NCBI GenBank assembly: GCA_045580325.1
Contig: JAZNNR010000005.1
Location: forward strand, 3,504 to 67,503
Reading direction: 5' to 3'
DNA: 64,000 nucleotides
From: Eubacteriales bacterium
GTDB taxonomy: Bacteria; Bacillota; Clostridia; Oscillospirales; CAG-272
Shown here: positions 1 through 22,685 of the stretch, one piece after another
How the letters are laid out: each line of letters begins with the position of its first letter
Position numbering within the stretch: the first letter of the stretch is position 1
Notes under the pieces: generated by a model
Told to the model about the DNA's origin: nothing
The model's input: only the letters and a program-made list of their open reading frames with translations
Database searches by the model: none
Position numbers and translations under genes: made by a program

Positions 1-2243
1 ATCGTCGCAAAGCGCTTCTCGTTATGGCAACCGGATCGGGCAAGACAAGAACTGTAATTGCGCTCTGCAAGGTATTGCTTGATCACGGCTGGGTGAAGAA
101 TATTCTGTTCCTTGCCGATCGTAATTCGCTCGTTACACAGGCAAAGCGTGCCTTTGTGAATATGCTTCCCGACCTCTCTGTAACCAATCTTTGCGAGGAC
201 AAAGAAAACTTTGATTCCCGTTGTGTTTTCTCGACTTATCAGACTATGATGAATTGTATTGATACCGTCAAGGACGAAAACGAGAAAAAACTCTTTACAG
301 TCGGACATTTTGATCTCGTTATAGTGGACGAGGCGCACCGTTCGATCTATAACAAGTACAAGGATATTTTCAATTATTTTGATGCACCTTTGGTTGGACT
401 TACCGCAACGCCGAAGGATGAGATCGATAAGAACACCTATGAGATTTTCGAACTTGAAAACGGCGTTCCTACCTATGGTTATGAGCTTGGACAAGCAGTT
501 ACCGATGGATATCTCGTTGACTTTATGTCAGTCGAGAGTAAACTGAAATTTATTGAGCAGGGGATCGTATATGATGACCTTTCAGAGGAAGATAAAGAGG
601 CATATGAAGATACGTTTGAGGATGAAAACGGCGAACTCCCCGAAAGCATTGCTTCTTCTGCTATTAATGAGTGGGTGTTTAACGAGGACACCATTCGTCA
701 AGTGCTTCATATTTTGATGCAAGACGGTTTGCGCATTGATTATGGCGAAAAACTTGGAAAGACTATCATCTTTGCCAAGAATCACGAGCACGCCGAAAAG
801 ATTCACGAGATATTTGGAAAAGAATATCCCAATCTTCCCGGATACACAAAGGTTATTGACAACTATATGACTTATGCACAGAGTGCGATCGATGAGTTTT
901 CCGATCCAAAGAAATTACCTCAAATTGCGATCTCAGTCGATATGCTTGATACGGGTATTGACGTGCCCGAGGTGCTGAACCTTGTCTTCTTCAAGAAGGT
1001 TATGAGTAAGGCAAAGTTCTGGCAGATGATCGGTCGTGGTACCCGTCGTTGCGATGGACTTATGGACGGTAAGGATAAAGATAAGTTTTTCATCTTCGAC
1101 TTCTGCGGAAACTTTGAGTTCTTCCGCATGAATAACGGCAGACCTACAGCAAATCAGATTGCTTTGCAGGGAGCGATTTTTAAGCTCAAAGCACAGATTG
1201 CTTTTAAGCTTCAAGATCTTGCATATCAGACAACCGAGCTGATCGCATTTAGAAAGACTTTGGTTGATGATATGGTGCGTAAAGTGCGTGAACTCAATAA
1301 GGAGAATTTTGCTGTTCGTCAGCATTTGCGCTACGTAGAACAGTATGCGAATCCCGATAACTATAACTCACTCAGCTACGAGGATACGCTACTCATGGCA
1401 GAAGAACTTGCTCCATTGATTACACCCGACGAAGATGAAGCATCGGCTGTTCGTTTTGATGCTTTAATGTATGGTATTGAGCTTGCATATCTTGCAGGCA
1501 AGAAGTATTCGCGTGCCCGTACCGATCTATATAAAAAAGTCAGCGGAATTGCGCGAGTGGCAAATATTCCCGAGATTATGGTTCAGTCAGAACTGATTAA
1601 CAAGATTCTTCATACCGATTATTTGGATAATGCGGGTATCAATGAATTTGAATATATCCGTGAAAATCTTCGCGATTTGATGAAGTATATTATAGGCAAA
1701 CAAGTAGTCCCCTATATCACTAATTTTAATGATGAGATTCTCTCTGTTGAATGGAACGAATCGGATCTTGAAAGCGATGATCTAAAGAACTATAAAGCAA
1801 AAGCAGAGTTTTATATCCGTCAGCATCAGGACGAGGCGGCAATCGCAAAGTTAAAGAGCAACGTTCCTTTGAGTGCGGAAGATGTTAAGGCGCTTGAGCG
1901 TATTCTGTGGAGTGAGGTTGGTAGTAAAAAGGACTATGAAGCAGAATACGGTGAAAAGCCTCTTGGCGAGTTTGTTCGTGAGATCGTCGGACTTGATATG
2001 ACCGCAGCTAAGGCGGCGTTTGCGGAATATTTAAACGATGTTAATCTTGATGCAGATCAAATTTATTTTGTGAACCAAATCATTGAGTATATCGTACATA
2101 ACGGCGTAATGAAAGATATGTCAGTGCTTCAAGAGCCTCCATTTACTGATAGAGGAAGTATTGTTGAGGTGTTCACCGATATTTCGATTTGGTTGGGTAT
2201 TAGAAACGTAATTGAAAAGATTAACGCAAATGCGGCAGCATAG
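1..2243 (+). CDS. hsdR: Type I restriction endonuclease R subunit (HsdR), N-terminus outside the window
   Basis: Frame is open from base 3 (..RRKALLVMATGSGKT). SF2 helicase motifs are present: ATGSGKT (I), VIVDEAHRS (II), LTATP (III), QMIGRGTR (VI). The C-terminal part (LSAEDVKALERILWSE...FVNQIIEYIVHNG) resembles the EcoEI-R C-terminal domain. Confidence 0.85.
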   Translation, partial: RRKALLVMATGSGKTRTVIALCKVLLDHGWVKNILFLADRNSLVTQAKRAFVNMLPDLSVTNLCEDKENFDSRCVFSTYQTMMNCIDTVKDENEKKLFTVGHFDLVIVDEAHRSIYNKYKDIFNYFDAPLVGLTATPKDEIDKNTYEIFELENGVPTYGYELGQAVTDGYLVDFMSVESKLKFIEQGIVYDDLSEEDKEAYEDTFEDENGELPESIASSAINEWVFNEDTIRQVLHILMQDGLRIDYGEKLGKTIIFAKNHEHAEKIHEIFGKEYPNLPGYTKVIDNYMTYAQSAIDEFSDPKKLPQIAISVDMLDTGIDVPEVLNLVFFKKVMSKAKFWQMIGRGTRRCDGLMDGKDKDKFFIFDFCGNFEFFRMNNGRPTANQIALQGAIFKLKAQIAFKLQDLAYQTTELIAFRKTLVDDMVRKVRELNKENFAVRQHLRYVEQYANPDNYNSLSYEDTLLMAEELAPLITPDEDEASAVRFDALMYGIELAYLAGKKYSRARTDLYKKVSGIARVANIPEIMVQSELINKILHTDYLDNAGINEFEYIRENLRDLMKYIIGKQVVPYITNFNDEILSVEWNESDLESDDLKNYKAKAEFYIRQHQDEAAIAKLKSNVPLSAEDVKALERILWSEVGSKKDYEAEYGEKPLGEFVREIVGLDMTAAKAAFAEYLNDVNLDADQIYFVNQIIEYIVHNGVMKDMSVLQEPPFTDRGSIVEVFTDISIWLGIRNVIEKINANAAA

Positions 2244-2314: not shown

Positions 2315-2587
2315 ATGGTACGGACAAAACAAGTAAATAACGAAAACAGAGCGGTTCTGAATCGGGATTTCCCGAGGCGGGACCGCTTTCTCATTATGGT
2401 GCCGGAGGAGCTGAAGAGGCTTTATCCCAACGCCAAGCTGGAGCACATCAAAATAGCTTTGGAGAGATTCGGCGATTATGAGTGCGGAGAGGGTGAGAGC
2501 AAGATCGAGCTGTTCGGCAAGGTGCTGGCGGCGGTGATCATTGATGAAACCATCGGAAAGAGAGGTGGCGCGCATGAACATCATTGA
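2315..2587 (+). CDS. hypothetical protein (GC-rich element backbone)
   Basis: AAGGAGG lies 7 nt upstream of ATG 2315. 90 aa. No domain recognised. Confidence 0.5.
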   Translation: MVRTKQVNNENRAVLNRDFPRRDRFLIMVPEELKRLYPNAKLEHIKIALERFGDYECGEGESKIELFGKVLAAVIIDETIGKRGGAHEHH

Positions 2588-2846
2588 AGAATTATGGTAT
2601 GGCAACATCTCGCCGTGCGAGCGGGACTTCAAGAAAGGCAGTACATACTCGGAGCTGCTTGGGTACATCGTTAGGCACGAGGAAGACCTGCAAAAGCGGA
2701 TGAACGACGAGGAAAAGGAAATCTTCGAGAAGTTTACCGAATGCACCAACGAAATGTACGGCATCGCGGAGCGGGAGGCGTTCGCAAGAGGCTTCACGCT
2801 TGGCGCCAGGATCATCATCGAAATAATGAATACGGAAATCGAATAA
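2574..2846 (+). CDS. small conserved hypothetical protein of the kind seen in Clostridia phage/ICE regions
   Basis: ATG 2574 follows GAGAGGTGG and overlaps the upstream stop by 14 nt. The N-terminal MNIIEELWYGNISPCE motif is one I recall from small mobile-element proteins; the family name is not certain. Confidence 0.5.
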   Translation: MNIIEELWYGNISPCERDFKKGSTYSELLGYIVRHEEDLQKRMNDEEKEIFEKFTECTNEMYGIAEREAFARGFTLGARIIIEIMNTEIE

Positions 2847-2864: not shown

Positions 2865-3095
2865 ATGAAGAAGTTAATCACCAGTATTATCGCACTGATT
2901 ATGACATTCTTCACAGCATCGAATCAGAGTGCAGATCGACCGCACGTGACCGCCGTAAAATCGCCACATACGGCGATAACGGTGCAGGTGGAGCAAGTAC
3001 CCGAAAAAAGCGAAACACGCGCAGAAACGGCAATTACAGGCAAAGCAACTGAGGTTGAAAGCGCGATAGAAACGAAGGAAAACACGCCTAAATGA
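2865..3095 (+). CDS. small secreted protein (signal-peptide-like N-terminus)
   Basis: MKKLITSIIALIMTFFTASNQSA is a hydrophobic leader. 76 aa. Followed by a hairpin terminator. Confidence 0.4.
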   Translation: MKKLITSIIALIMTFFTASNQSADRPHVTAVKSPHTAITVQVEQVPEKSETRAETAITGKATEVESAIETKENTPK

Positions 3096-3132
3096 TAAAT
3101 GTTTTTAGCCTCAATATTATGTAACTTATTTT

Positions 3133-3177
3133 ATGAACCGATAGGGACAAGCGTGCTCTTATCGGTTCATTTCTATT
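3133..3177 (+). terminator. intrinsic terminator after the small ORF cluster
   Basis: ATGAACCGATA (3133-3143) pairs with TATCGGTTCAT (3160-3170) and is followed by TTCTATT. Confidence 0.45.
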
Positions 3178-3276
3178 GTAATACTTTTTTAAAAAAGGTA
3201 AAATGCAATCCATATTGTTACCCAATAAAACATTTTACACAATTTTAATGTAAAATACTTTTATTTAAGGAGGTAA

Positions 3277-3894
<618 letters not shown>

Positions 3895-3902
3895 CGTTAC
3901 AA

Positions 3903-3928
3903 CTATCATAAGCTACACCTTTTGATAG
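3903..3928. repeat. left hix-like recombination site (12-2-12): CTATCATAAGCT-AC-ACCTTTTGATAG
   Basis: Read directly. It is an inverted copy of 4050-4075 (23/26). Each site is itself an imperfect palindrome. It starts 8 nt after the recombinase stop. Confidence 0.75.
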
Positions 3929-3945
3929 GCACAACTATTTAAATT

Positions 3946-3974
3946 AGTATATCATAAATATGTAGAAAATTCAA
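3946..3974 (-). promoter_or_regulatory. sigmaA-type promoter inside the invertible segment, currently pointing toward the recombinase gene (OFF for the operon)
   Basis: The minus strand reads TTGAAT (3974-3969), a 17-nt spacer, then TGaTATACT (-10 at 3951-3946). Confidence 0.55.
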
Positions 3975-4049
3975 GTCATTTAGCGATTCAATTTGACAAA
4001 ATTTCGAAAAAAGTTACAGATTTTTCATCCAACGACTTAAACGAGACCA

Positions 4050-4075
4050 TTATCAAAAGGTGTACCTTATGATAA
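4050..4075. repeat. right hix-like recombination site: TTATCAAAAGGT-GT-ACCTTATGATAA
   Basis: Reverse complement of the left site, with the core dinucleotide inverted (GT versus AC). The half-site TTATCAAAA matches the Hin hix half-site TTATCAAAAACC as I recall it. Confidence 0.75.
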
Positions 4076-4134
4076 TGCTCTCACACCAAATGTTGGCCAA
4101 GGAATGATGGATTTGATAAAGGAGAAAATCGAAA

Positions 4135-6819
4135 ATGTCTGCAAGCTACATATCTAATGAAAAACTAACAACAGGAGAATTCATTGCCCTTTCTTCTTTT
4201 GAAATTACTTCAATCCCGCATGTTAAAATTGTCGATAATGGTAAATTGAGTACCTCTGAGGTTTTAGAAAAGTATAAAGCCGAATTTGGAAATTTACTAA
4301 AAGAGATATATCAAGTGTACAGAACCATAAGTGTTTCTGCAGGATATTCAAAGGATATCTCAGTTGAAATTTTTTGGAAAACAACGGAAGTGAAAAATCA
4401 GCCGTTTAAAGCAAACATACGGTTATTTATAATCGTTCGTGCAATTGATAGCGACAAAAGTTCCGTAAATAAGACTGTAGAGTCTATGGTTCGGCTATGT
4501 CAAGCATCATTGACTCTACAAAAATACGAATACAAAACATTGTTGTATGAAGAGCTTTCTCAAATCGTTAAAAGTGTTGACGATACAAACATTCGCGCAA
4601 TTGTCAAAGAAGAAAAGGTTGAAAACTTGCAAAATCAACTGTTACCGCAGTGTTACTCGTTCGACAGAATTACTCCTTCAAACAGTGATTTAAGCCGAAT
4701 AGTTAATGCTTTGATTGAATATCCCGATTGCGCTATTTCAATTCAATTAATTCCCAATATTTATGACAATAGTGAGATTATTGAGATTGATAAAACCACT
4801 CAAATGCTTGAAACACTTAATAAAGGAGTGTCGGACCATAACATGGGCAACGTAAGTTTCGCACTCGCAGGCAAGCACGCAGCTAATTATAGATATTACT
4901 CTGAAAATAAAACAAACGAGTTGTTTTTCTTTAACATACTCGTGCTTGGCAATAGCGAAGCTGTTTCGAATATTTCCAGCCGCATATATGGGCAATTATC
5001 ATCCGGAACGGGGGCATCCACAAATCTCAAAATGGTTTCTCTTACACAGACGGAGGTGTCGAAGGATAACAATTTTTATCCATTACCTTGGGCTGTAAAC
5101 GAAATCTTGATTGGAAAAAACAGAAACAATCAGATTTGGAATTCGGGACAATTCTCCAATGCATTATACAGATTGCCATACATTATCACTGTAGAGGAGG
5201 CGGCAGAGTTTTTTGCTTTGCCTGTTGGCAGTGATCGAATTTCTGCCGGTTTGAATGTAAATGAATCCGGGAAAGACAGCAAAACATATTCATCAAATAT
5301 AATCAATGCCGGAGATATAACCGTAGGTAAACTACGTTCTTCTGCCAAGGGAGATACTATTGGTTTTTCTCTGAAAGATTTAGCAAAACATATGCTCGTT
5401 GTCGGCACTCCCGGTTCGGGCAAAACAACTTTTTCTGTTAGTCTCTTGGATAGATTATGGAAGGATCATAAAATTCCTTTCTTGGTTATCGAGCCGGCTA
5501 AGAATGAGTATCGTGCGCTTGTGCAAAGCATTCCTGAACTTCAAGTTTTTACGCCCGGCAAAAACCATATTTCTCCGTTCGTATTCAACCCTTTTGTGCC
5601 GCCAAAGAATGTTAAGCTAGAAACATATAAATCCACTTTGAAAACTGCATTTGCAGCAGCCGTTTCAATGTCTACGCCTCTTGACAAAATTTTTGAGGAA
5701 TCTATTAATAACTGCTATTCTGATTTTAGGTGGCTTGACACATATACTGTTGACGACAAAGGAAAGACTTTCAATATTTCTGACTTTATCAAGTGTTTCC
5801 AACAAACATTTGATGAAATCGGATATACGGGTGATGCCAAGAATATTGGCCGAGCAGGTGTAGTAAGACTAAATAGCCTTGTGAATCTGTTTGACAATTA
5901 TTTTTCAATTCCTATCGAAGATATTTTGCAGAAACCAACGATTATCGAACTGGCAGCTATTGAAAACAGTGATCAAAAAGCATTGATAATTGCACTGCTT
6001 TTGCTTTCAATTCTTGCATATGTTAATTCCAATTATGTTGGTGAAGGTGGCTTGAAAAACGTAATATTGCTAGAAGAGGCGCATGTACTTTTAGATGCAG
6101 ATACCAATGCAGGACAAGGAGATGCCAATCCTAGTGCTATTGCCCAACGACTTGTTAAAAGAATGTTAGCAGAAATACGTTCCTATGGAGTTGGATTAAT
6201 TATTGCCGATCAATCACCTAGAAAAGTTTCCACGGACGTAGTTGCTCTAACTGATATGAAGATGGTCTTCCGTCTAGTAGAGAGCGCGGACAAACAGATT
6301 ATTGGCGATAGTACGAATATGTCCGAAACTCAGATTCAACGAATGTCAAAATTGAAACCGGGCGAAGCATTTTTGTTCTTTAACAAATTGGAAGAGCCGG
6401 AAGAAGTTATTACTCCGGATTACCGCTTAGAAAATAACATAAGCATCTCGCTTTCCGATGAGGGTATCAAATCCTTGTCAACATATTGGAACGACAAGGC
6501 AGATAAACTTCGGCCATATCCTCAATGCGAGCTTTGTTCGTCTTGCCAACACACGTGCGTTTACTCAAGGAGAGTTCTTGCGCGAGAAATAGCAAGAAGA
6601 ATTTATGTTAAAAACTTCAAACCCGATACTTCAGATTTCGATATTTTGAAAAAAGTCTTTGGGAAGATCAGCAGACTAATTCAAGATGAGTTAAATGACG
6701 AGCCCTTCACTTCCGAACTGCTCTTATGTGTAAAAGTTCATTTATGGAGAAGGATACGCTATGGAACCAAAATCAGTATTACTGATACTCTAATTGAAAA
6801 CTCACTAAAAAAACAATAA
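4135..6819 (+). CDS. HerA/FtsK-superfamily P-loop ATPase (DUF87-like) with an uncharacterised N-terminal region of about 400 aa
   Basis: Walker A GTPGSGKTT (5404-5430), Walker B VILLEEAH (6061-6084), LIIADQSPRKV...MKMVFRL. AAGGAG RBS. C-terminal Cys cluster CELCSSCQHTC. No TM segment. Confidence 0.8.
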   Translation: MSASYISNEKLTTGEFIALSSFEITSIPHVKIVDNGKLSTSEVLEKYKAEFGNLLKEIYQVYRTISVSAGYSKDISVEIFWKTTEVKNQPFKANIRLFIIVRAIDSDKSSVNKTVESMVRLCQASLTLQKYEYKTLLYEELSQIVKSVDDTNIRAIVKEEKVENLQNQLLPQCYSFDRITPSNSDLSRIVNALIEYPDCAISIQLIPNIYDNSEIIEIDKTTQMLETLNKGVSDHNMGNVSFALAGKHAANYRYYSENKTNELFFFNILVLGNSEAVSNISSRIYGQLSSGTGASTNLKMVSLTQTEVSKDNNFYPLPWAVNEILIGKNRNNQIWNSGQFSNALYRLPYIITVEEAAEFFALPVGSDRISAGLNVNESGKDSKTYSSNIINAGDITVGKLRSSAKGDTIGFSLKDLAKHMLVVGTPGSGKTTFSVSLLDRLWKDHKIPFLVIEPAKNEYRALVQSIPELQVFTPGKNHISPFVFNPFVPPKNVKLETYKSTLKTAFAAAVSMSTPLDKIFEESINNCYSDFRWLDTYTVDDKGKTFNISDFIKCFQQTFDEIGYTGDAKNIGRAGVVRLNSLVNLFDNYFSIPIEDILQKPTIIELAAIENSDQKALIIALLLLSILAYVNSNYVGEGGLKNVILLEEAHVLLDADTNAGQGDANPSAIAQRLVKRMLAEIRSYGVGLIIADQSPRKVSTDVVALTDMKMVFRLVESADKQIIGDSTNMSETQIQRMSKLKPGEAFLFFNKLEEPEEVITPDYRLENNISISLSDEGIKSLSTYWNDKADKLRPYPQCELCSSCQHTCVYSRRVLAREIARRIYVKNFKPDTSDFDILKKVFGKISRLIQDELNDEPFTSELLLCVKVHLWRRIRYGTKISITDTLIENSLKKQ

Positions 6820-6849
6820 GTAATGAATGTCTTTAATGGAGGAATAAAA

Positions 6850-8499
6850 ATGGGAGATGAATTTGATACAGACCTTGGGTCAACCGACTTAAGTGATTCT
6901 TCGGACACAAACACCTCTGAAGTTGAGGATACTTCTGACTCTTCGGAAATCGCATCAAGCGAAATACTTGAAGATACTTCAGAACTTTCTGATAATTTTG
7001 CTGAAGATGCAGGATTTGAGTTAACAGAAGACTCATACACATCTGAAACAGATGCTAATTTTGAAAGCACTGATGATTTGATTTCGGAGGACAGTATCGA
7101 CTACGACAATGAAGATGTTGATATGATGGAACAAGACGAAATTGCTGAGGATTCTTTCGGCGAAGAAAGCGATGTTGTTTCAGAGAATCAGAGCGAATAT
7201 GTCCCCGAAGATGTCGAAATGGATGAAAACACGTTTGAGTCTGATCAAGGCGAAGAACTTCAAGAAGATGTTTTAGACGATTCCAATGAAGACGATCCTC
7301 CCAAGGTTTTGAAACGTGATGAATTTGATCTGCTTAAAACCGGAAACGATGCTATCAATGAGAGGTTAGAAGCACAAGCTGATAATTATCGTGATAAGGG
7401 ACTTTCGGAAGAAGAAATTGAGGAACGTTTGGCCGAGGATAAACAATACTATCAAAAAGAATTTTTAGAAGATGCTTTCCCCGGACAAGAAGTTTCTCCT
7501 AATGTTTTCAATGGTTTTTCGGAGGCAGACAAAAAAGACTTGAGCCAAGAAACAAGGAATGACCAATTTGTTGATGATCAAAATGATGTGAATGAAATTC
7601 AACAAGGCGATAGCAATTTTAAAGACTCAGTTTCAGATGGTGTAGGCGATTTTGATGAACATGAGTTAAGCGATAATGATCTTACAGTTGATGACGGTAT
7701 TATGACCGAGGAGGTTAAAGGTGAAGAAACAGAATTTCCCGAAACAGATGAAGTTTCAGTAGCTAATATTGAAAGCGAGATCTCCACAAACATCAATAAT
7801 GACGAAATGACGGACGAGAATTCATATTTTGAAAATGATGATGTTGATGAGGATGAGCAGAACGAAGTTGCTCCTGATGACAATTCTGTTGATAGGAAAT
7901 TGAACTTAGAAGTTGATGACAGTGATTCTCCATCTTCTAAAATGAGTGACGACTCTTTGTTTGAGGATAATAAGGAAACCGATTACATATACACTGAAAC
8001 CGACTATGGTAAACACGCATCAGGTCAATTGGACTTGGAAAAAGGTAAAAGAAGTGCTTATGCTCAACGAACGGTTGGCGGTGAAGATCGACAAGAATAC
8101 GACGATGGAGGTCATTTGATTGGAAGTCGATTCGCCGGATCGGGAAGTTATGAAAACCTAGATGCACAGTCGCGTGATCTTAATCGCGGTGAGTACAAAA
8201 AGATGGAGAACGAATGGGCAAAATCGCTTGAGAATGGCGAAAGAGTCTATGTCGATGTTAACACATATAAGTCTAACGGCTCGGATAGACCAGACTCGTT
8301 TATGGGATATTCAATTGCAGAGGATGGCTCTGGGACACGTTCAATTGATGCGTTTTCTTTTCAAAACGAGAGTGTAGAAACACAAGAAGAATGGGAAGAA
8401 ATAGTTTCTAGTACAGATATGCAAAATGATTTTAGTAATGCAATGAAATATACAAACGAGCAAAAGAAAATAATCGATGAAGAAAAAGATACCGAATAA
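6850..8499 (+). CDS. acidic low-complexity N-terminal region (about 390 aa) fused to a C-terminal DNA/RNA non-specific endonuclease (Endonuclease_NS_2, EsaD/YeeF-type beta-beta-alpha-Me)
   Basis: GGAGG lies before ATG 6850. The D/E/S-rich sequence is followed by DDGGHLIGSRFAGSGSYENLDAQSRDLNRGEYKKMENEW...RPDSFMGY. No signal peptide, LXG or WXG features. Confidence 0.8.
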   Translation: MGDEFDTDLGSTDLSDSSDTNTSEVEDTSDSSEIASSEILEDTSELSDNFAEDAGFELTEDSYTSETDANFESTDDLISEDSIDYDNEDVDMMEQDEIAEDSFGEESDVVSENQSEYVPEDVEMDENTFESDQGEELQEDVLDDSNEDDPPKVLKRDEFDLLKTGNDAINERLEAQADNYRDKGLSEEEIEERLAEDKQYYQKEFLEDAFPGQEVSPNVFNGFSEADKKDLSQETRNDQFVDDQNDVNEIQQGDSNFKDSVSDGVGDFDEHELSDNDLTVDDGIMTEEVKGEETEFPETDEVSVANIESEISTNINNDEMTDENSYFENDDVDEDEQNEVAPDDNSVDRKLNLEVDDSDSPSSKMSDDSLFEDNKETDYIYTETDYGKHASGQLDLEKGKRSAYAQRTVGGEDRQEYDDGGHLIGSRFAGSGSYENLDAQSRDLNRGEYKKMENEWAKSLENGERVYVDVNTYKSNGSDRPDSFMGYSIAEDGSGTRSIDAFSFQNESVETQEEWEEIVSSTDMQNDFSNAMKYTNEQKKIIDEEKDTE

Positions 8500-8514
8500 A
8501 AGGAGAAAATAATT

Positions 8515-9696
8515 ATGGCACTTTTCGAAAAAAACGCAAATGAAGCTGCATATGCGGGTGGCAAAAAGCATTGGGCTGATGTAATAAAAAACACTGGTCC
8601 CGGAGAACTGTTGATTTGGCGGCAGCCTGAAGAAGATTTCAATACTAATTCAACGCTAGTGGTTATGCCAGGAGAAGAAGCTATTTTTATCAAAGGGGGC
8701 ACAATTGAACAGGTTTTTGAAAATGGTACATACCAACTCTCTACTGAAAATTATCCCTTCATAAGCAGATTGCGTAACGCCTTTACCGGTGGCGTCAGTA
8801 CATTCAATTGTGTGGTTTATTTCGTTCGTAAAGCTGACAGCATGGAAATTCTTTGGGGAACCGATTCTCCCATTCAAGTACGTGATAAACATTGGGGGGT
8901 TCGAACTGATGCGAAAGCCAGAGGAGCATACAAAGTCAGAATAACAAATCCGGCAAAATTTTTAGAAAAACTTGTCGGAAACAATGTTCAATATCAAACT
9001 CAAGATGATTTGAACAAGTATTTCCGTAATGAGCTTCAGGGAAAAGTAAAATCGGCTGTATCAAAGTTCCTTAATTCTTTAACTCAAGAACTTATTGGGT
9101 TGGATGCTTATTTGGACGAATTGTCCGAACATGTTGAGCCTTACATAAATGAAGCTTTGGAATATTATGGTCTCAAGTGCGTTAAGTTTTCACTATCGGG
9201 CTTGGATATCGATGTGACAAAATACGATGTTTTGGATGAGTCTCAAATCGGACTGATAACCAAAGACCGTTTTGAAAGAGGAAGAGAATTTGAATATAGA
9301 ACCGAGAAAGCGGGAGTTAATATTCAGGGCGAAGATTGGGGCCGTATTCAAGGCGTTGAAGTTATCCGAGATTTAGCAAACAATCCAGGTGCCGGTGGAG
9401 TTGCAGCCGCAGGCGCAGGAATGGGAATGGGTCTTGGGGCCGCAGGAGTATTCAGCACAGTGGCACAACAAGTTTTTTCACCAGCAAATAACGCATTTGC
9501 ACTTCAACAAAACACACCACCTCAAAGCGGGCCTTCCGGAAGATTTACTCAGCAAAGTGCCGCAAATCCTACAACTCAGCCGATTGCTGAAGATCCAGTT
9601 GAGGTTCTTGGTAAATTAAAGAGACTTTTAGATGCGGGACTTATTGAGCAAGCGGAATACGATGCTAAGAAAGCAGAAATTCTAAGCAGAATGTGA
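8515..9696 (+). CDS. SPFH/band-7 protein of the COG4260 type (B. subtilis YdjI-like) with a Gly/Ala/Gln-rich linker and a C-terminal SHOCT domain
   Basis: LIWRQPEEDFNTNSTLVVMPGEEAIFIKGG...YQLSTENYPFIS...VVYFVRK...WGTDSPIQVRD fits the pattern. The C-terminal VEVLGKLKRLLDAGLIEQAEYDAKKAEIL is SHOCT-like. Confidence 0.8.
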   Translation: MALFEKNANEAAYAGGKKHWADVIKNTGPGELLIWRQPEEDFNTNSTLVVMPGEEAIFIKGGTIEQVFENGTYQLSTENYPFISRLRNAFTGGVSTFNCVVYFVRKADSMEILWGTDSPIQVRDKHWGVRTDAKARGAYKVRITNPAKFLEKLVGNNVQYQTQDDLNKYFRNELQGKVKSAVSKFLNSLTQELIGLDAYLDELSEHVEPYINEALEYYGLKCVKFSLSGLDIDVTKYDVLDESQIGLITKDRFERGREFEYRTEKAGVNIQGEDWGRIQGVEVIRDLANNPGAGGVAAAGAGMGMGLGAAGVFSTVAQQVFSPANNAFALQQNTPPQSGPSGRFTQQSAANPTTQPIAEDPVEVLGKLKRLLDAGLIEQAEYDAKKAEILSRM

Positions 9697-9707
9697 GGTG
9701 ATCTGCT

Positions 9708-10598
9708 TTGCCATTAGTTCCTGCAAAGTGCACACAATGTGGAGCAAGTTTAACTGTTGATCCATCTAAGGAAGCAGCGATTTGTCCATATTGTAATCAA
9801 GCATATATCGTGGAAAAAGCTATCAACTATTACAATACCACCAACGTAACAAATATAGACACATTACACGCTGATAAAGTTATTGTTGAAAGCAGTGATT
9901 CGGCAGAAAATTTGCTTAGGGCTGGAGAAACGCATATAAGATTAAAGAATTATATCGAAGCCGTGTTGAAATTTGAAGAAATGTGCAATAAATTCCCACA
10001 TAATTTTCGAGCATGGTATGGTCGACTCAGGGCTTTAACTAATGATTTCATAACATATGAGAAATTTAAGGAGTATTCGCCACACGACAAATGGGAGTTT
10101 TTCACCAAAGCAATGGATCAACACACCAAAAACACTTCGAAAACAAATCTTAAATATTGTGCGGATTTACTTGGTGTTTGTGAAAGATATTGCATTATAA
10201 TTGCTGACGAATTACCTAAACCCGAGAATTATCTTGAGACCATTAATTCGGTTTTATCGTTTGTTAAAAATGTACTTGTTGATCATAGCAAAAGTATCAG
10301 AGAGAATTATGATCCAATCGAAAAACGCTGCGCATCATTAATCGAAACGATGGAACTGAAAATGGCAAAATTATCCCCAAGAAAAATAAAGAATGTCCAA
10401 ACTGTGTTGAAAAGTGATGAAGTGTGTCATTGGAGTTGTTACCAAGAGAGATATATCCAAGAAATAGTTGAACTTCATAATGAAACCAAACGTGCCGAAT
10501 CCGAACGTCGTCGCATATGGAACAGATTGGACATTGACCTCTTCAGTACAAACGTGGAAAAGTTACAAATTCTGCGACAAAAATATTTAAAGGAGTGA
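9708..10598 (+). CDS. zinc-ribbon protein with a TPR-like helical region
   Basis: TTG start 6 nt after GAGGTG. CTQCG...CPYCN ribbon, then LLRAGETHIRLKNYIEAVLKFEEM..AWYGRL. Confidence 0.6.
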   Translation: MPLVPAKCTQCGASLTVDPSKEAAICPYCNQAYIVEKAINYYNTTNVTNIDTLHADKVIVESSDSAENLLRAGETHIRLKNYIEAVLKFEEMCNKFPHNFRAWYGRLRALTNDFITYEKFKEYSPHDKWEFFTKAMDQHTKNTSKTNLKYCADLLGVCERYCIIIADELPKPENYLETINSVLSFVKNVLVDHSKSIRENYDPIEKRCASLIETMELKMAKLSPRKIKNVQTVLKSDEVCHWSCYQERYIQEIVELHNETKRAESERRRIWNRLDIDLFSTNVEKLQILRQKYLKE

Positions 10599-10603
10599 TA
10601 ACG

Positions 10604-11284
10604 ATGAGAAAGAAAACAATATTATACCTTTTACTTGATTTGATATTTCTTGTGATTTTTAACTTGATATTTTTTATGGTGGGAGGGGCTGAACACCCAG
10701 CATCTGTGTGGCTTTCCTATGGTTTTATTCATTTTGCTTACATAATGCTAATCATAACACCTGTATTGACGAAAAAAAGCAGTAGCAAAGCGGTTTTGGG
10801 ATTCCCTTTATATACAGTTTCAGCCATATACTTTATTATTGAGTTTGTAGTGGGTTTGATTTTTATATTTATTAGAAGCGAATTCTACACGGTTGCATTA
10901 ATTGTTCAGGTTATATTGCTAGGCATATATGTACTGCTGCTTATTCCAAATCTTATTGCTAATGAGCAAACGGCAGAAAACATAGAACTACACGAAAGAG
11001 AAGTAGCATATATTAAAGAGGCTTCTTCAAGAGTAAGAAGTCTTGTTGACAAGATGAGCGACAAAGGCGCTAATAGGGCTATAGAAGCTGTTTACGACTT
11101 GCTTCATTCTAGTCCAACGCGCTCTCATTCATCTGTTGAGCTTCTCGAAGAAGATATCATTAATAAAGTGACGGAACTTGACGTAGCTGTTTGTTCAGAT
11201 GACATTTCAAAAGTTTTATCTACCTCAAAAGAACTGATTGCTATAGTTGAAGAGCGAAACAGAAAATTGAAACTCTATCAATAA
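10604..11284 (+). CDS. membrane protein with four predicted TM helices and a cytoplasmic helical C-terminal domain
   Basis: AAAGGAG lies 8 nt before ATG 10604. There are four hydrophobic stretches in the first 120 aa or so. Nearly abuts the upstream stop. Confidence 0.65.
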   Translation: MRKKTILYLLLDLIFLVIFNLIFFMVGGAEHPASVWLSYGFIHFAYIMLIITPVLTKKSSSKAVLGFPLYTVSAIYFIIEFVVGLIFIFIRSEFYTVALIVQVILLGIYVLLLIPNLIANEQTAENIELHEREVAYIKEASSRVRSLVDKMSDKGANRAIEAVYDLLHSSPTRSHSSVELLEEDIINKVTELDVAVCSDDISKVLSTSKELIAIVEERNRKLKLYQ

Positions 11285-11310
11285 AAAATATAAATTGGAG
11301 GACATAAAAA

Positions 11311-12246
11311 ATGATGCAAATTAAATGTGAAATGTGTGGAAGTTCAGATTTGGTGAAAGAGAATTCGCTTTATGTATGCAAGCACTGCGGCATGAAGTAC
11401 TCTCCCGAAGAAGCTAAAAAAATGATGGTGGAAATCGAGGGCGCTGTAAAAATAGACAATACCGAGGAAATTGCAAACCTTTATGTACTAGCAAAAAGAG
11501 CAAAAGAAAGTGAGAATTATAAAGAAGCACAAAATTATTATAGTCAAATATTGCTAAAAGCACCAACAGATTGGGAGGCTGCGTTTTATTCGCTGATTTT
11601 TGACGCTACTAACTGCGTAATTGCACAAATTGCAGAATCTTGCGATAAAATAACTTTGGGCATTCCTAGTGTTATTAAACTTGTAAAAAATACAGTTACA
11701 GACAGAGAAGAACTAAAACGCATTTGCAACGAAATGGCAAACGAAGTAAATTGGGCAGTTGGACTCTTTTTCGAAACTGCTCAAAAGCACTTTGATTATG
11801 ATTGGCATAAAAAAGAAGAGGCGGAGAGTAGTGCGGTTTATGCTGCGTACGAATTTGCTTATGAATTAAGAATGGCTTTCCCTAATAAGGAATATATTGA
11901 CTCGGAGATTTTATGTATAAAACAAGCTATGTTAATGCAAAGCCGAATGTATACTTGCGATGCTAAACACAGAGAAATATACATAAATAACGCTCGATAT
12001 CTCAAGCAATATTGTCCATCATATGAAGTACCTTTAATAGGAGGTGTCACCACACAACAAATCGAATCAGGGCTCTCGGTGGAAGAAATTGAAGCAGCAT
12101 ATATAAAAGACTGTAAAGAAATAGAAGAACAGACAAAAGCAGAGGACGAAAAATCAAAGAAAAAATTTTGGACTATTGTTATTGTGATTGCTGTAGTGAT
12201 GTACATTTTGGGTCGTTTAGGTATAGGACTGTTGTTGGGTTTTTAA
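11311..12246 (+). CDS. zinc-ribbon / TPR-like protein with a C-terminal TM anchor (paralogue 1)
   Basis: MMQIKCEMCGSS..VCKHCGMKYSPEEAKKMM. C-terminal FWTIVIVIAVVMYILGRLGIGLLLGF. GGAGG RBS. Confidence 0.7.
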   Translation: MMQIKCEMCGSSDLVKENSLYVCKHCGMKYSPEEAKKMMVEIEGAVKIDNTEEIANLYVLAKRAKESENYKEAQNYYSQILLKAPTDWEAAFYSLIFDATNCVIAQIAESCDKITLGIPSVIKLVKNTVTDREELKRICNEMANEVNWAVGLFFETAQKHFDYDWHKKEEAESSAVYAAYEFAYELRMAFPNKEYIDSEILCIKQAMLMQSRMYTCDAKHREIYINNARYLKQYCPSYEVPLIGGVTTQQIESGLSVEEIEAAYIKDCKEIEEQTKAEDEKSKKKFWTIVIVIAVVMYILGRLGIGLLLGF

Positions 12247-12312
12247 CTTTCCAAATACATAAATAATTTGAAAATAAAAATATGAAGTTACATAATTAAC
12301 TGGAGGTATAAA

Positions 12313-13284
12313 ATGATGCAAATTAAGTGCGAAATGTGTGGAAGTTCAAATATGGTGAAAGAGGATTCGCTTTATGTGTGCAAGCACTGCGGTATGAAGT
12401 ATTCTCCCGAAGAAGCAAAAAAAATGATGGTTGAAATCGAAGGCGCGGTAAAGATTGATGATACTGAAGAACTTTCAAATTTATATGTACTTGCAAGGCG
12501 TGCTAGAGATAACAAGGATACAGACGGAATTTTGAAGTATTATGGCGATATATTAAGAAAGGATCCAATGAGTTGGGAAGCTTCTCTTTTTCTGCTAGTT
12601 TATGATCATACCGAAAGAGTGTTGGCAGAAACTGAGCAATCATGTCAAAAATTTCTTAATGGAATCTCGTCTATTGTCGATTTGGTAAAAGATACCGTTG
12701 AAGATGACGAAGAGCGAAAAAATGCTTATAGCGAAGTATCACGATATACGGTATGGGCTACTGAAAATATTCTTTCCGTAACTCAAAAGTACGAGGATAT
12801 ATTTAAGGAAAGGCGCAGTCAGATATTAACTTACTTACACAATATTACATATACGTTTGCTAATCAAATGCAGAATAATTTCCCAAAAGGAGAATATGCT
12901 GACTCTATAATATTGTGTGCAAAACAAGGCGTGAAGCTTCAAAGTTTAAAAATGAACGCTTATGTACCACTAAACAATGAGGCAGAAAGAAAAACATATT
13001 TGGAATGGGTTAGATATATAAAACAATATGATCCACGATATTGGGCTCCTTCAATACCGGGAGTTACCTCACAACAAATAGAATCAGGACATACTATAGA
13101 AGAAATTGAAGAAGAAAATTTACTACAGGAGGTAAAAGAGCTAGAAGAAAACGAAAAAGCAGAAAAAAAAGCATCAGTTCTCGGATGCGTTGTGGTATTA
13201 ATCCTTTTGATATTAGCATTTTTCTTCGTGAAGTGGGCATTCGGTTGGATTTTGGGAGATATCGGAAAGTGGTTTGGGCTTTAA
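12313..13284 (+). CDS. zinc-ribbon / TPR-like protein with a C-terminal TM anchor (paralogue 2)
   Basis: The first 50 codons or so are nearly identical to 11311-11460. Same architecture as paralogue 1. GGAGG RBS. Confidence 0.7.
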   Translation: MMQIKCEMCGSSNMVKEDSLYVCKHCGMKYSPEEAKKMMVEIEGAVKIDDTEELSNLYVLARRARDNKDTDGILKYYGDILRKDPMSWEASLFLLVYDHTERVLAETEQSCQKFLNGISSIVDLVKDTVEDDEERKNAYSEVSRYTVWATENILSVTQKYEDIFKERRSQILTYLHNITYTFANQMQNNFPKGEYADSIILCAKQGVKLQSLKMNAYVPLNNEAERKTYLEWVRYIKQYDPRYWAPSIPGVTSQQIESGHTIEEIEEENLLQEVKELEENEKAEKKASVLGCVVVLILLILAFFFVKWAFGWILGDIGKWFGL

Positions 13285-13307
13285 TATTACATACTACCTA
13301 TAATGAA

Positions 13308-13342
13308 AGTGTCGAGGCAGATAGACTCCTCGGCACTTTTTA
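13308..13342 (+). terminator. intrinsic terminator ending the 7-gene operon
   Basis: AGTGTCGAGG...CCTCGGCACT stem followed by TTTTT. Confidence 0.6.
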
Positions 13343-13539
13343 ATATCATCGCACAAACTAACAAAGAAACCGTAGAATGCATAGAGGAAGGTGAAGACCG
13401 TCCCGGCGAGGGAAAACACTTCTAAGTTTTAAATAGGTGTGACAACACCTACCATAAAGATAGGGCATGACATACACTGATTTTTCAGTGGTATCGTCAT
13501 GCTCTTTTTATTTGTCTCTTTTCAGCTTAGGGGTGTAAA

Positions 13540-14134: not shown

Positions 14135-14971
14135 ATGGACAAACAAATGAAACTGGTCTCGATCTCCGAGATCGAACTGCAAGAGGTGGAGTGGTTGTGG
14201 TATCCGTATATCCCGTTCGGGAAGATCACGATTATCCAAGGCGATCCGGGTGAGGGTAAAACTACGCTCGGGCTCAGGCTTGCGGCGGCGTGCTCAAACG
14301 GGAGCGGTTTTCCCGGTATGGAAGAGCGACCGCCCATCAGTGTGATCTATCAGACTGCCGAGGATGGTCTCGGCGACACGGTGAAACCGCGACTGATGGA
14401 AGCGGAGGCAAACGAGAATCTTATCTTCAACATCAGTGAAGAAACCGACGTGCTGACGCTGAAGGACGTGCGCATCGAGGCGGCGATCAAAGCAACGGGT
14501 GCAAGGCTAATGATCTTCGATCCCATCCAAGGCTACGTTGGAGAGGACACCGACATCAACCGTGCAAACGAGATCCGCACCGTGATGCGCGGTATCGCAA
14601 GGATCGCCGAGGAAACGGGTTGCGCGATTGTCTTCGTGGGGCATCTGAACAAGATGAAAGGAACGAACAGCGCATACCGCGGACTTGGTACGATTGACTT
14701 TCGTGCATCGGCGCGAAGCGTGCTTCTCGTCGGAAGACTTCGCAAGATGCCAAACGTGCGTGTCATCGTTCACGACAAGTCGTCCCTTGCGCCCGAAGGA
14801 AAATCGATGGCGTTCAATCTCGGTAACGAAGAGGGATTCAAGTGGCTCGATGGTTACGACAAGATCACAGCGGACGAGCTTCTCGGCGGCGGTGAAACTG
14901 AAACGAAGACTGACATGGCAGAGGACTTGATTCTCGATATGCTTTCCTCGGGTGAGTTTGTTCCCGCCTAA
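14135..14971 (+). CDS. RecA-fold AAA_25 / RepA-DnaB-like replication ATPase of integrative elements
   Basis: Walker A GDPGEGKTT, Walker B RLMIFDPIQ, VFVGHLNK. AAGGAGG RBS. Ends at TAA 14969-14971. Confidence 0.8.
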   Translation: MDKQMKLVSISEIELQEVEWLWYPYIPFGKITIIQGDPGEGKTTLGLRLAAACSNGSGFPGMEERPPISVIYQTAEDGLGDTVKPRLMEAEANENLIFNISEETDVLTLKDVRIEAAIKATGARLMIFDPIQGYVGEDTDINRANEIRTVMRGIARIAEETGCAIVFVGHLNKMKGTNSAYRGLGTIDFRASARSVLLVGRLRKMPNVRVIVHDKSSLAPEGKSMAFNLGNEEGFKWLDGYDKITADELLGGGETETKTDMAEDLILDMLSSGEFVPA

Positions 14972-15483: not shown

Positions 15484-15906
15484 ATGACAAAGACACAAGA
15501 ACCGGTAAGAAAAACAGTTTATCTTGAAGAAAAGCTTGTCAGACAAGCAGAAATTCTCTTCGGTGAAGCGGAGGTGGACTCCTTTTCTGCATTCGTGACC
15601 AAAGCGATTGAGAATTATATCACCAAGCTTGTCATCGACAAGAACGGCGATCTCCTCTCCAAAGAGATCCGTAAGGCCATCCACGAAGAGATCAATCCCA
15701 CCAACACCCGCATCTCCAAAGGGCTGTACCGATACGCTATCGAGCTTGATATGCTTGCTCAGATGGTGGCGTATCAGCATGACTTCCGATACGAAGAGAT
15801 CGTTGGAATGCGCAAGGAAGCCAACAAGTACGTAGCGCAGATGCGCGGTAAGATCAATGTGGATGAGCTGATCTGCGAGGTGCACGGTGAATACTACGAC
15901 GATTAA
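15484..15906 (+). CDS. hypothetical protein, possibly ribbon-helix-helix at the N-terminus
   Basis: KTVYLEEKLVRQAEILF..FSAFVTKAIENYI pattern. GAAAGGAAG RBS. Confidence 0.55.
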   Translation: MTKTQEPVRKTVYLEEKLVRQAEILFGEAEVDSFSAFVTKAIENYITKLVIDKNGDLLSKEIRKAIHEEINPTNTRISKGLYRYAIELDMLAQMVAYQHDFRYEEIVGMRKEANKYVAQMRGKINVDELICEVHGEYYDD

Positions 15907-15919
15907 AAAGGAGAAATCT

Positions 15920-16303
15920 ATGAGTAAAATGACAGACATTCGTTTCAGATTACAAATTGCAGGAGGTAATATGCGTATGATCAAGAGAGACGTTTTCGAA
16001 TATTTCAAGAAGGAGCCCGACGTGATGCAGGTCAAGGACGTGGTGCGGCTGCTCCATTGCAGCAAGAACACTGTGTACAAGCTGATCCACGAGGGGCGCA
16101 TTGACAGCATCAAAATCGGTCGGAACATTCTGATTCCCAAGACCGCGCTGGTGGAAATGATGGTGAACGAAAGATATTATCAAATTATTTGTCCCTACAA
16201 TCCCGATTCTCTCTGGACTATGAAGGAGCGTAACCGTATAATTGCTTCGAACAAGAATTCCAAAACGAAAGGAGGCAAAGGCGTGAATGAAGATTATCAA
16301 TAA
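15920..16303 (+). CDS. excisionase-family helix-turn-helix DNA-binding protein
   Basis: AAGGAG lies 6 nt before ATG 15920. MQVKDVVRLLHCSKNTVYKLIHEGRIDSIKIGRNILIPK is a typical Xis/MerR-type HTH. Directly upstream of the integrase. Confidence 0.7.
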   Translation: MSKMTDIRFRLQIAGGNMRMIKRDVFEYFKKEPDVMQVKDVVRLLHCSKNTVYKLIHEGRIDSIKIGRNILIPKTALVEMMVNERYYQIICPYNPDSLWTMKERNRIIASNKNSKTKGGKGVNEDYQ

Positions 16304-18386: not shown

Positions 18387-18475
18387 TGGCGGAGAGAGTG
18401 GGATTCGAACCCACGTGAGATTGCTCTCAAACTGATTTCGAGTCAGCCCCGTTATGACCACTTCGATATCTCTCC
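18387..18475 (-). tRNA. tRNA-Ser (anticodon CGA), CCA encoded
   Basis: GGAGAGA acceptor stem, anticodon loop CTCGAAA, long variable arm, GGTTCGAATCC T-arm. 89 nt. Confidence 0.9.
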
Positions 18476-21774: not shown

Positions 21775-21780
21775 CTCCTA

Positions 21781-22647: not shown

Positions 22648-22685
22648 ATTTTAGTCCTTTCTGTGTAATATGTGTAGAAAAAGGC

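Follow-up and report, generated by a model that had tools for sequence, protein, structure and literature searches.

Here, we describe a gene at positions 6850-8499 of a 64,000-nucleotide (nt) stretch of DNA from a Eubacteriales bacterium (contig JAZNNR010000005.1 of assembly GCA_045580325.1), referred to below as the window. The gene encodes a predicted nuclease of the EsaD type at the end of a long, strongly acidic leader, and it lies between the genes for a HerA-like ATPase and an SPFH protein. We tentatively propose, at somewhat less than an even chance, that it supplies the exchangeable effector to a membrane-associated conflict cassette, which is conserved and moves horizontally and comprises, in order, a HerA-like ATPase, an acidic-leader protein, in some cases a partner open reading frame (ORF), an SPFH/SHOCT scaffold and a protein with four transmembrane (TM) segments (4-TM protein), together with Zn-ribbon/TM accessories. 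Its core of four genes, apparently undescribed so far, looks to be a membrane-associated ATPase system that is widespread among gut bacteria; a description of the cassette was sought in the full-text literature, Pfam, NCBIfam and PADLOC and none was found, which is an absence from these sources and not proof of novelty. The coordinates of all features are collected in Table 1.

Identifying the payload is the starting point of this proposal. The ORF was listed as 6823-8499, and we prefer the ATG at 6850 as its start because a ribosome-binding site (GGAGGA) lies at 6838-6843 and close homologues begin with MGDEFD, MDEEFD or MDEEY. The original prediction, made from the sequence alone, had recognised an Endonuclease_NS_2 toxin domain, and this assignment holds: Pfam PF13930 (Endonuclea_NS_2) matches with E=1.4e-20 and 74.2 bits against a cut-off of 27, and a phmmer search of the PDB returned EssD/EsaD of Staphylococcus aureus as the closest solved relative (8GUO, E=1e-16; also 8GUN). 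The motif DDGGHLIG spans nt 8101-8124, and in the alignment its histidine (His422) pairs with the EssD position that is alanine in the 8GUN mutant, while Asn436 and Asn445 pair with the N..N of EssD; the catalytic residues named in the original prediction are therefore aligned as it supposed. The active site is intact and the nuclease domain a bona fide PF13930 member, with a predicted Mg-dependent, non-specific DNase activity. In an AlphaFold2 (AF2) model the nuclease domain reaches a predicted local distance difference test score (pLDDT) of ~70-89, and the top Foldseek matches to this model are only EndoG, CPS-6, Serratia nuclease and Sda1-type proteins (probability 0.9-1.0), with weak E-values of 6.5e-3 and weaker for a query that is mostly disordered. 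Equally in line with what had been noted from the sequence, no LXG, WXG100 or other N-terminal targeting domain of a type VII secretion system (T7SS) was matched in Pfam at E<=0.01, hydropathy analysis of the product revealed no hydrophobic segment, and it has no signal peptide; the N-terminus consists instead of MGDEFD followed by an acidic disordered tract. The full length is retained in an 88%-identical orthologue. The acidic C-terminal tail is not kept in all NS_2 members, and its ~60 residues were considered as a cis-inhibitor replacing immunity and rejected, the tail being absent or short in the members P0004 and P0006 and poorly conserved.

The acidity of the product is extreme, with 86 Asp and 85 Glu against 39 Lys and Arg in 549 residues (D+E = 31%, net charge -132), and Lys and Arg are both absent from the first 148 residues (net -59). 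The long poly-acidic N-terminal tract that had been described from the sequence is thus strongly charged, and AF2 predicts disorder (pLDDT <50) over residues 1-151 and 225-356, but the tract is not uniform: it is interrupted at residues 149-226 by an ordered helical hairpin module (DDPPKVLKRDEFDLLK...FPGQxVSPNVFNGF), with helices at 156-182 and 187-209 (pLDDT 82-87). This module is 50-75% identical to homologues with unrelated toxin domains; a hidden Markov model (HMM) built for it matches 11 of 53 loci, it is duplicated in the members P0005 and P0009, and no Pfam model matches it. The protein also opens with a short tag, M-x-[DE]-[DE]-[FYW], found in 38 of 53 family members (72%) against 35 of 804 background ORFs (4%). 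No model in Pfam, NCBIfam or PADLOC matches the N-terminal region of the toxin family.

A homologue search of 5.8 billion proteins yielded 64 relatives, most of which cover only 14-40% of the query at 50-75% identity, and the segment common to most of them is the ~80-residue island at residues 149-226, not the nuclease. Relatives that keep the acidic tract, a search for which had been proposed, were accordingly found with differing C-terminal toxins: behind long acidic and often repetitive leaders they carry colicin-DNase and WHH (PF12639+PF14414), papain-fold Gln_amidase (PF15644), HExxH metallopeptidase-like or NS_2 (PF13930) domains. TNT, DUF6782/SprT-like metallopeptidase and C39-like peptidase domains came to light in a wider survey, as did ParB-like GRHR motifs that were recognised by eye only. 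A conserved N-terminal region joined to alternative C-terminal toxins is how a polymorphic toxin family is built. Across loci the acidic protein ranges from 67 to 1,374 amino acids (D+E 20-43%), and toxin-less versions occur in many Bacteroidales and some Bacilli/Clostridia; it follows directly after the ATPase gene even when only 67-73 amino acids long and toxin-less. What the family has in common is this position, the acidity and the N-terminal tag, and an acidic leader directly downstream of a HerA-like ATPase is its near-universal feature. The gene was first taken for an EsaD/YeeF-type toxin lacking its usual parts; these comparisons place it instead in a separate polymorphic family with its own tag and hairpin module. 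At one locus (L001, 9277-11161) we noticed a second, short acidic-leader NS_2 nuclease (302 amino acids) downstream of the 4-TM gene, followed by a Cys-rich 223-residue protein that has no Pfam match and is a possible nuclease inhibitor.

The ATPase encoded immediately upstream consists of an N-terminal domain of ~390 residues without family assignment, an ATPase core and a Cys-rich C-terminal region. Pfam returns DUF87 (E=1.4e-10) and a weak FtsK_SpoIIIE match, and NCBIfam and PADLOC give partial matches to HerA, CedD and mad8 below their cut-offs; against the NCBIfam model HerA_antiphage the protein scores 47 bits, the cut-off being 800. The profile of the ATPase family matches archaeal HerA 4D2I (E=1e-9) and the anti-phage HerAs 8WIV, 8XAU and 9X1L, with the matches falling in the Walker-B/arginine-finger region, and this profile appears nearest to HerA, the HerAs of defence systems included. 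No TM segment was found in the ATPase by hydropathy. The family comprises 1,708 representatives of 50% clusters at E<=1e-30, whose members are named only 'DUF87 domain-containing' or 'ATP-binding protein' in the source databases. An AF2 model of the ATPase, built from an alignment 88% identical throughout, has a mean pLDDT of 43.9. Four cysteines (C798, C804, C808 and C865; residues 798-865, window positions 6526-6729) are nearly invariant across phyla, suggesting a candidate metal-binding module.

We sampled the cassette by scanning one genome per species for the ATPase and fetching 79 loci, with context look-ups of eight (L001-L006, L088 and L170). Gene order was constant in these look-ups: a HerA-like ATPase of ~890 residues, the acidic protein, sometimes a small ORF, an SPFH Band_7_1 protein (with or without SHOCT) and a 4-TM protein of ~227 residues. 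The SPFH gene lies downstream of the acidic protein in 58 loci, and the 4-TM family F2 directly follows the SPFH gene in 47; the 4-TM protein itself has no match in Pfam, NCBIfam or PADLOC. The next gene, correctly called an SPFH protein in the original prediction, is no unrelated neighbour but belongs to the core of the cassette. Accessory genes are also frequent: a Zn-ribbon+TPR protein, a 2-TM protein and a YidD-like protein are encoded upstream, and Zn-ribbon proteins with a TM segment downstream. The window holds the four core genes and three Zn-ribbon proteins, and a tblastn search of the window for the upstream accessory families F3, F4 and F5 did not find them. At L171 (9298-13209; also L172), both Zn-ribbon/TM accessories lie between the acidic toxin and SPFH genes and carry TIR_2 domains. 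An SPFH-less variant arrangement with a HerA-like ATPase was seen at L087 (1-9080) and L089, where the order is ATPase, a 582-residue protein, a Zn-ribbon protein, a 153-residue protein, an AAA+ ATPase (524 residues), a WHH/colicin-DNase acidic toxin and a double-Zn-ribbon protein.

Species genomes that carry the cassette number at least 567 and are spread over many phyla. The hosts include Lachnospiraceae, Oscillospiraceae, Ruminococcus and Faecalibacterium; Bacteroidales, among them Prevotella and Alistipes; Treponema, Planctomycetaceae, Kiritimatiellia and Akkermansiaceae; and Fretibacterium, Modestobacter, Eggerthellaceae, Fibrobacteria and Acholeplasmataceae. Monoderms, diderms and a wall-less lineage (Acholeplasmataceae) are thus all represented, and the core cassette contains no envelope-specific parts. 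Since ATPase identity remains at 45-80% across so many phyla, the distribution implies extensive horizontal transfer.

Toxins of the EsaD/YeeF type are normally followed by an immunity gene, and the original prediction had found none here. This stands: only 15 nt separate the stop codon of the toxin gene from the SPFH gene, and a search of the small and alternative-frame ORFs of the island for a DUF600 or Imm-type Pfam match, which would have revealed an overlooked immunity protein, returned none. Clustering of the C-terminal domains of the family, and of the ORFs found between toxin and SPFH genes, revealed a strict co-variation of the two. A conserved 98-residue ORF comes next in 8 of 8 members of the DUF6782-like metallopeptidase class, ORFs of 61-78 residues follow the HExxH class, ORFs of 132-164 residues the C39-like class (4/5), ORFs of 74-103 residues the Gln_amidase class and an 88-residue ORF the TNT toxin. 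No ORF follows the NS_2 class (the window, L004, L005 and L006) or the colicin-DNase/WHH class (L022, L030 and L088). Overall, a partner ORF accompanies 0 of 7 DNase payloads vs 25 of 26 non-DNA toxins (Fisher P = 2e-6, for loci that are not phylogenetically independent). The ParB-like members at L057 and L061 and the SHH-like P0009 are also without a partner ORF, their assignment as nucleases having been made by eye only. Absence of an immunity gene would accordingly appear to be a rule of the DNase class and not an accident of this gene. The partner family of 98 residues was found in cis in 58 of 59 metagenome loci, with one orphan, in a sample biased to close relatives. The 296-residue Zn-ribbon protein was considered as a nuclease immunity protein and rejected, as its families F7/F11 also occur with TNT toxins and with toxin-less acidic proteins; F7 was seen at 12 loci whose toxin is of another class or absent.

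The cassette (4135-13284) sits on an integrative island, whose backbone genes and likely attachment site are given in Table 1. GC content is 35-40% across 3-14 kb and 42-52% in the flanks. A resolvase heads the cassette here and also in L004, L088 and L170, and over the 79 loci the families met most often in the flanks are integrases, resolvases and relaxases. In the metagenome run X1, one DNA contig joins position 3066 to 13387, skipping 10,320 nt (depth 8, shorter side 37 nt); although weak, being a single contig, it suggests that a variant lacking the 10.3-kb resolvase-headed cassette exists. The same cassette-less joint was sought in four more metagenomes, where only noisy joints with short sides were recovered. 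A small ORF ending at 3095 apparently has its 3' end replaced by the insertion (cf. an ORF end near 13425). Near-identical sequence is present in animal gut metagenomes, and contigs from a chicken-gut RNA-seq run (X14) cover 5687-7588 at 90-97%, across the junction of the ATPase and toxin genes; the match takes in the 3' portion of the ATPase gene, the toxin leader and the hairpin, and the contigs diverge past ~7588, where toxin cassettes differ between strains. A megablast of the core region against plasmids gave no match. A phage origin was considered and rejected, only one ATPase relative having been found in 2.9 million viral contigs.

Table 1 Features of the cassette and its surroundings (window positions; aa, amino acids of the encoded product).
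Feature	Position	Strand	Context or evidence
10.3-kb cassette, resolvase and eight genes, putative mobile unit	3067..13386		absent from variant metagenome contig
Serine recombinase (resolvase) heading cassette	3283..3894	+	Pfam Resolvase E=3e-29
HerA-like P-loop ATPase, 894 aa	4135..6819	+	Pfam, family profile
Acidic-leader polymorphic toxin, 549 aa, net charge -132	6850..8499	+	ORF call, Pfam, composition, AF2
N-terminal tag MGDEF and acidic tract 1, aa 1-148, predicted disordered	6850..7293	+	composition; pLDDT <50
Conserved helical hairpin module, aa 149-226	7294..7527	+	homologue identity; AF2
Acidic tract 2 / linker, aa 227-375, net -43, predicted disordered	7528..7974	+	composition; AF2
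Endonuclea_NS_2 (EsaD/EssD-type beta-beta-alpha-Me) nuclease domain, aa 380-484	7987..8301	+	Pfam, PDB phmmer, Foldseek, alignment
Acidic C-terminal tail, aa 485-549, low confidence	8302..8499	+	alignment; pLDDT <50 past aa 508
SPFH (Band_7_1) protein with C-terminal SHOCT, without TM segment; core partner	8515..9696	+	Pfam E=7.7e-36; SHOCT E=4.9e-6
Zn-ribbon protein, 296 aa, accessory	9708..10598	+	N-terminal CxxC...CxxC
4-TM membrane protein with cytoplasmic helical tail, 229 aa; core partner	10595..11284	+	hydropathy
Zn-ribbon ... C-terminal TM protein, 311 aa, accessory; YdjG-like layout	11311..12246	+	Pfam, hydropathy
Tandem paralogue, Zn-ribbon ... C-terminal TM protein, 323 aa	12313..13284	+	Pfam, hydropathy, pairwise identity
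HsdR of type I restriction-modification system	24-2243		flank of cassette; Pfam, PADLOC
DUF6809 protein	2541-2846		flank of cassette, HsdR side
AAA_25 protein	14135-14971		island backbone
HTH_17 excisionase-like gene	15887-16303		island backbone
Tyrosine integrase	16373-17557		island backbone
tRNA-Ser, likely attachment site	18387-18475	-	

The two tandem Zn-ribbon/TM proteins of the window are 46% identical overall and nearly identical over their first 60 residues. Outside the island, the genes at 19316-23780 (minus strand) form an ABC transporter cluster of ABC_tran, ABC-2 permease, ABC_transp_aux and DUF4340 proteins and look ordinary and chromosomal.

How such a cassette might work can be sketched from its parts. 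The tag, the polyanionic leader and the hairpin would together form a family-specific handling region, which the neighbouring hexamer of the HerA type would hold or thread as a pseudo-substrate resembling DNA, and the C-terminal EsaD-like DNase would be the payload. In the resting cell, the tethered polyanion would hold the DNase off DNA; once invading DNA, a perturbed membrane or some similar trigger is sensed at the SPFH/TM platform, the ATPase would pull the leader away, unleashing the toxin inside the cell with an abortive-infection or anti-invader outcome. That the output is intracellular and of the abortive-infection type is a possibility we favour with reserve, rating it a little short of even. 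HerA/FtsK motors grip polyanionic DNA in their central pore, and for this reason the leader is plausible as a pseudo-substrate of the ATPase, for which it is probably a handle. It is likewise plausible that a tethered polyanion acts as a competitive inhibitor of a DNA-binding active site. Because an acidic leader would cis-inhibit a DNase, the model predicts that DNase payloads, and only these, go without a partner ORF, and the contrast between the two payload groups described above fits such cis-inhibition.

Several observations are consistent with an intracellular role. The TIR-bearing accessories of L171 and L172 speak for it, as do the neighbours of some cassettes, namely type I restriction-modification genes in the window, Mrr/WYL/PemK genes at L004 and Abi_2/nSTAND6 genes at L170. 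It is further favoured, on comparative grounds, by the apparent HerA affinity of the ATPase, the envelope-independent distribution of the cassette, the immunity-free DNases and the partner ORFs kept almost always in cis (58/59).

Other observations weigh against this reading. The leader stands equally on peptidase, deamidase and NADase payloads and on toxin-less proteins, for which reason nuclease inhibition cannot be its main function, and cis-inhibition can be no more than secondary. The suggestion that the acidic tract acts as an autoinhibitor or as a docking surface for the ATPase has thus gained indirect comparative support, from the near-universal leader after the ATPase and from the distribution of partner ORFs, with autoinhibition left as a secondary function of the leader; the loci behind that distribution are phylogenetically non-independent. 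Cognate, co-varying partner ORFs and tandem toxin/partner pairs are marks of exported interbacterial toxins, not typical of abortive-infection effectors, and tandem pairs do occur in L047, L032, L036 and L053, with an orphan toxin cassette in L001. The orphan homologue of the 98-residue partner (L136, 6929-7830) has as its neighbours an immunity protein of the SUKH_6/SMI1_KNR4 kind and a fragment resembling FtsK_SpoIIIE, and neither a HerA-like ATPase nor an SPFH gene was found near it. Several membrane proteins of the cassette, including the YidD-like one, would suit a translocon too. Finally, PADLOC models match neither the leader protein nor the SPFH or 4-TM proteins, and strong PADLOC matches in the flanks of the 79 loci number ~8 of 140, with sporadic AbiD, AbiEi, reverse transcriptase and Abi_2/nSTAND6 (L170) genes and no obvious enrichment of defence genes.

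Alternatively, though we consider it rather unlikely, the cassette could be a novel analogue of the T7SS, in which an ATPase drives the export or delivery of polymorphic toxins. Here, the M-x-DEF tag and the acidic leader would be a secretion signal, and the HerA-like hexamer would thread the unfolded polyanionic leader and strip off immunity proteins. A membrane conduit would be formed or organised by the SPFH, 4-TM, 2-TM/PH-like and YidD-like proteins, and the targets of the DNase, competitors or extracellular DNA, would lie beyond the producing cell. The polymorphic-toxin architecture with domains typical of interbacterial toxins, the partner ORFs that vary together with the toxin class, the loci holding tandem pairs or orphan toxin modules, the orphan partner gene beside an immunity gene, the conserved tag and the many membrane components all agree with export, and the acidic proteins that are short and carry no toxin could serve, like WXG100 proteins, as core substrates. 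FtsK/HerA-superfamily ATPases power the T7SS and the type IV secretion system (T4SS) (PMC3482391), and flotillin scaffolds T7SS assembly in S. aureus (PMC5718613), both of which we count in its favour. However, the same core cassette, lacking envelope-specific parts, occurs in monoderms, in diderms and in a lineage without a cell wall, the ATPase is free of TM segments, and the TIR domains at L171 are TM-anchored and face the cytoplasm. Exported DNases without an immunity gene would, in addition, expose kin, and partner genes are almost never orphan among the sampled loci.

It is improbable, in our judgement, that the SPFH, Zn-ribbon/TM and 4-TM proteins form a membrane-maintenance module of the YdjGHI/PspA kind, in which the acidic protein would be structural or regulatory and the toxins with their partner ORFs would be addiction modules stabilising a mobile cassette. 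Soluble Band_7_1 SPFH and Zn-ribbon/TM proteins do resemble YdjG/H/I of Bacillus subtilis (PMC8581546; PMC11237479), toxin-less versions are common, the cassette occurs on recombinase-bearing islands and partner ORFs are strictly in cis; yet no PspA gene was seen in the cassette by Pfam, and the invariant HerA-like ATPase, the N-terminal tag and the antitoxin-free DNases would be left unexplained. That the gene is an ordinary or decaying EsaD/YeeF-type T7SS toxin, which lost its LXG domain and DUF600 gene and whose acidic tract is meaningless, is scarcely credible: the nuclease domain is indeed closest to EssD, but the comparative data already contradict this view, with the leader, ATPase and SPFH arrangement conserved in dozens of loci across phyla, a conserved tag and module in the leader, an intact ORF and active site, and the nearly identical full-length orthologue.

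Returning to the proposed conflict cassette, its implications depend on how far the mechanism is taken. In its boldest form, which we regard as doubtful, it would be a phylum-spanning machine in which a HerA-type DNA-pump ATPase acts on protein, reads the M-x-DEF tag and threads a DNA-mimicking leader, thereby releasing a self-inhibited toxin or exporting a toxin at an SPFH-organised site. If true, this would amount to a new class of DNA-mimic-gated immune system or to a new polymorphic-toxin secretion system in gut bacteria. Should the comparative picture hold, an uncharacterised machine of four genes with swappable toxins is present in most bacterial phyla, in hundreds of species from the gut, the rumen and the termite gut, and it offers testable cases of 1) a disordered polyanion as handle or pseudo-substrate of a HerA/FtsK-type motor, 2) a nuclease kept harmless by a DNA mimic tethered to it, in place of an immunity protein, and 3) an SPFH scaffold wired into a conflict system. 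Whether it proved to be a defence system or an export route, a well-studied catalogue would gain an entry; further toxin/partner pairs would come to hand, as would a natural blueprint for nucleases that can be switched.

Among known systems, beta-beta-alpha-Me nucleases can be neutralised by an acidic polypeptide in the DNA-binding groove, as in EndoG-EndoGI and Anabaena NucA-NuiA, and Ocr and ArdA are DNA mimics. EndoG/EndoGI (PDB 3ISM) is among the Foldseek structural matches of the present nuclease; unlike EndoGI, NuiA, Ocr and ArdA, the putative inhibitor here would be covalently attached, disordered and ~375 residues long, a role drawn from comparative genomics only. The nuclease itself most resembles EsaD/EssD-EsaG (EssI) of the S. 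aureus T7SSb and YeeF-YezG of B. subtilis, sharing PF13930, ~50% identity over the catalytic core and the DDGGH..N..N signature, and as in EsaD/EssD it is the C-terminal payload of a longer protein encoded beside an FtsK/HerA-superfamily ATPase. In contrast to those toxins, it has no LXG/WXG domain and no DUF600 immunity gene and begins with a polyanionic disordered leader, and in contrast to the T7SSb, the ATPase is a single-core HerA/DUF87 protein and not EssC, with SPFH, Zn-ribbon and 4-TM proteins in place of EsaA, EssA and EssB. We do not assign the gene to the LXG/EsaD class of T7SS toxins because a targeting domain, an EssC-type ATPase and a DUF600 gene were each looked for and not found.

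With the HerA-effector anti-phage systems (SIR2-HerA and DUF4297-HerA; 8XAU, 8WIV), the cassette shares the ATPase profile match, an adjacent variable effector, mobility and a patchy distribution. It differs in an ATPase that is ~300 residues longer, has an unrelated N-terminal domain and falls far below the score expected of an anti-phage HerA, in an effector that is an NS_2 nuclease with an acidic leader and not SIR2 or DUF4297, in the partner ORFs of some loci and in the additional SPFH/TM partners. The SPFH side is reminiscent of PspA-YdjGHI of B. subtilis, where a TM-less Band_7_1 SPFH protein is likewise encoded with Zn-ribbon/TM and multi-TM anchors (PMC8581546); unlike in that system, no PspA/IM30 match was found among the cassette proteins scanned, and a HerA-like ATPase and an acidic effector are added. 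As in polymorphic toxin systems (PMC3482391), a constant N-terminal region is joined to swapped toxins of the same repertoire, and small downstream ORFs co-vary with most toxin classes, but all seven members of the DNase class, this gene among them, lack a cognate immunity gene, and many members of the family are toxin-less. No trafficking domain given in that survey corresponds to the N-terminal region, and a text search of it for HerA, FtsK and acidic gave T7SS/T4SS contexts only. Taken together, the cassette is at least a variant of the polymorphic-toxin or HerA-effector conflict systems, and it would be a new kind of machine if the HerA motor handles the DNA-mimicking leader.

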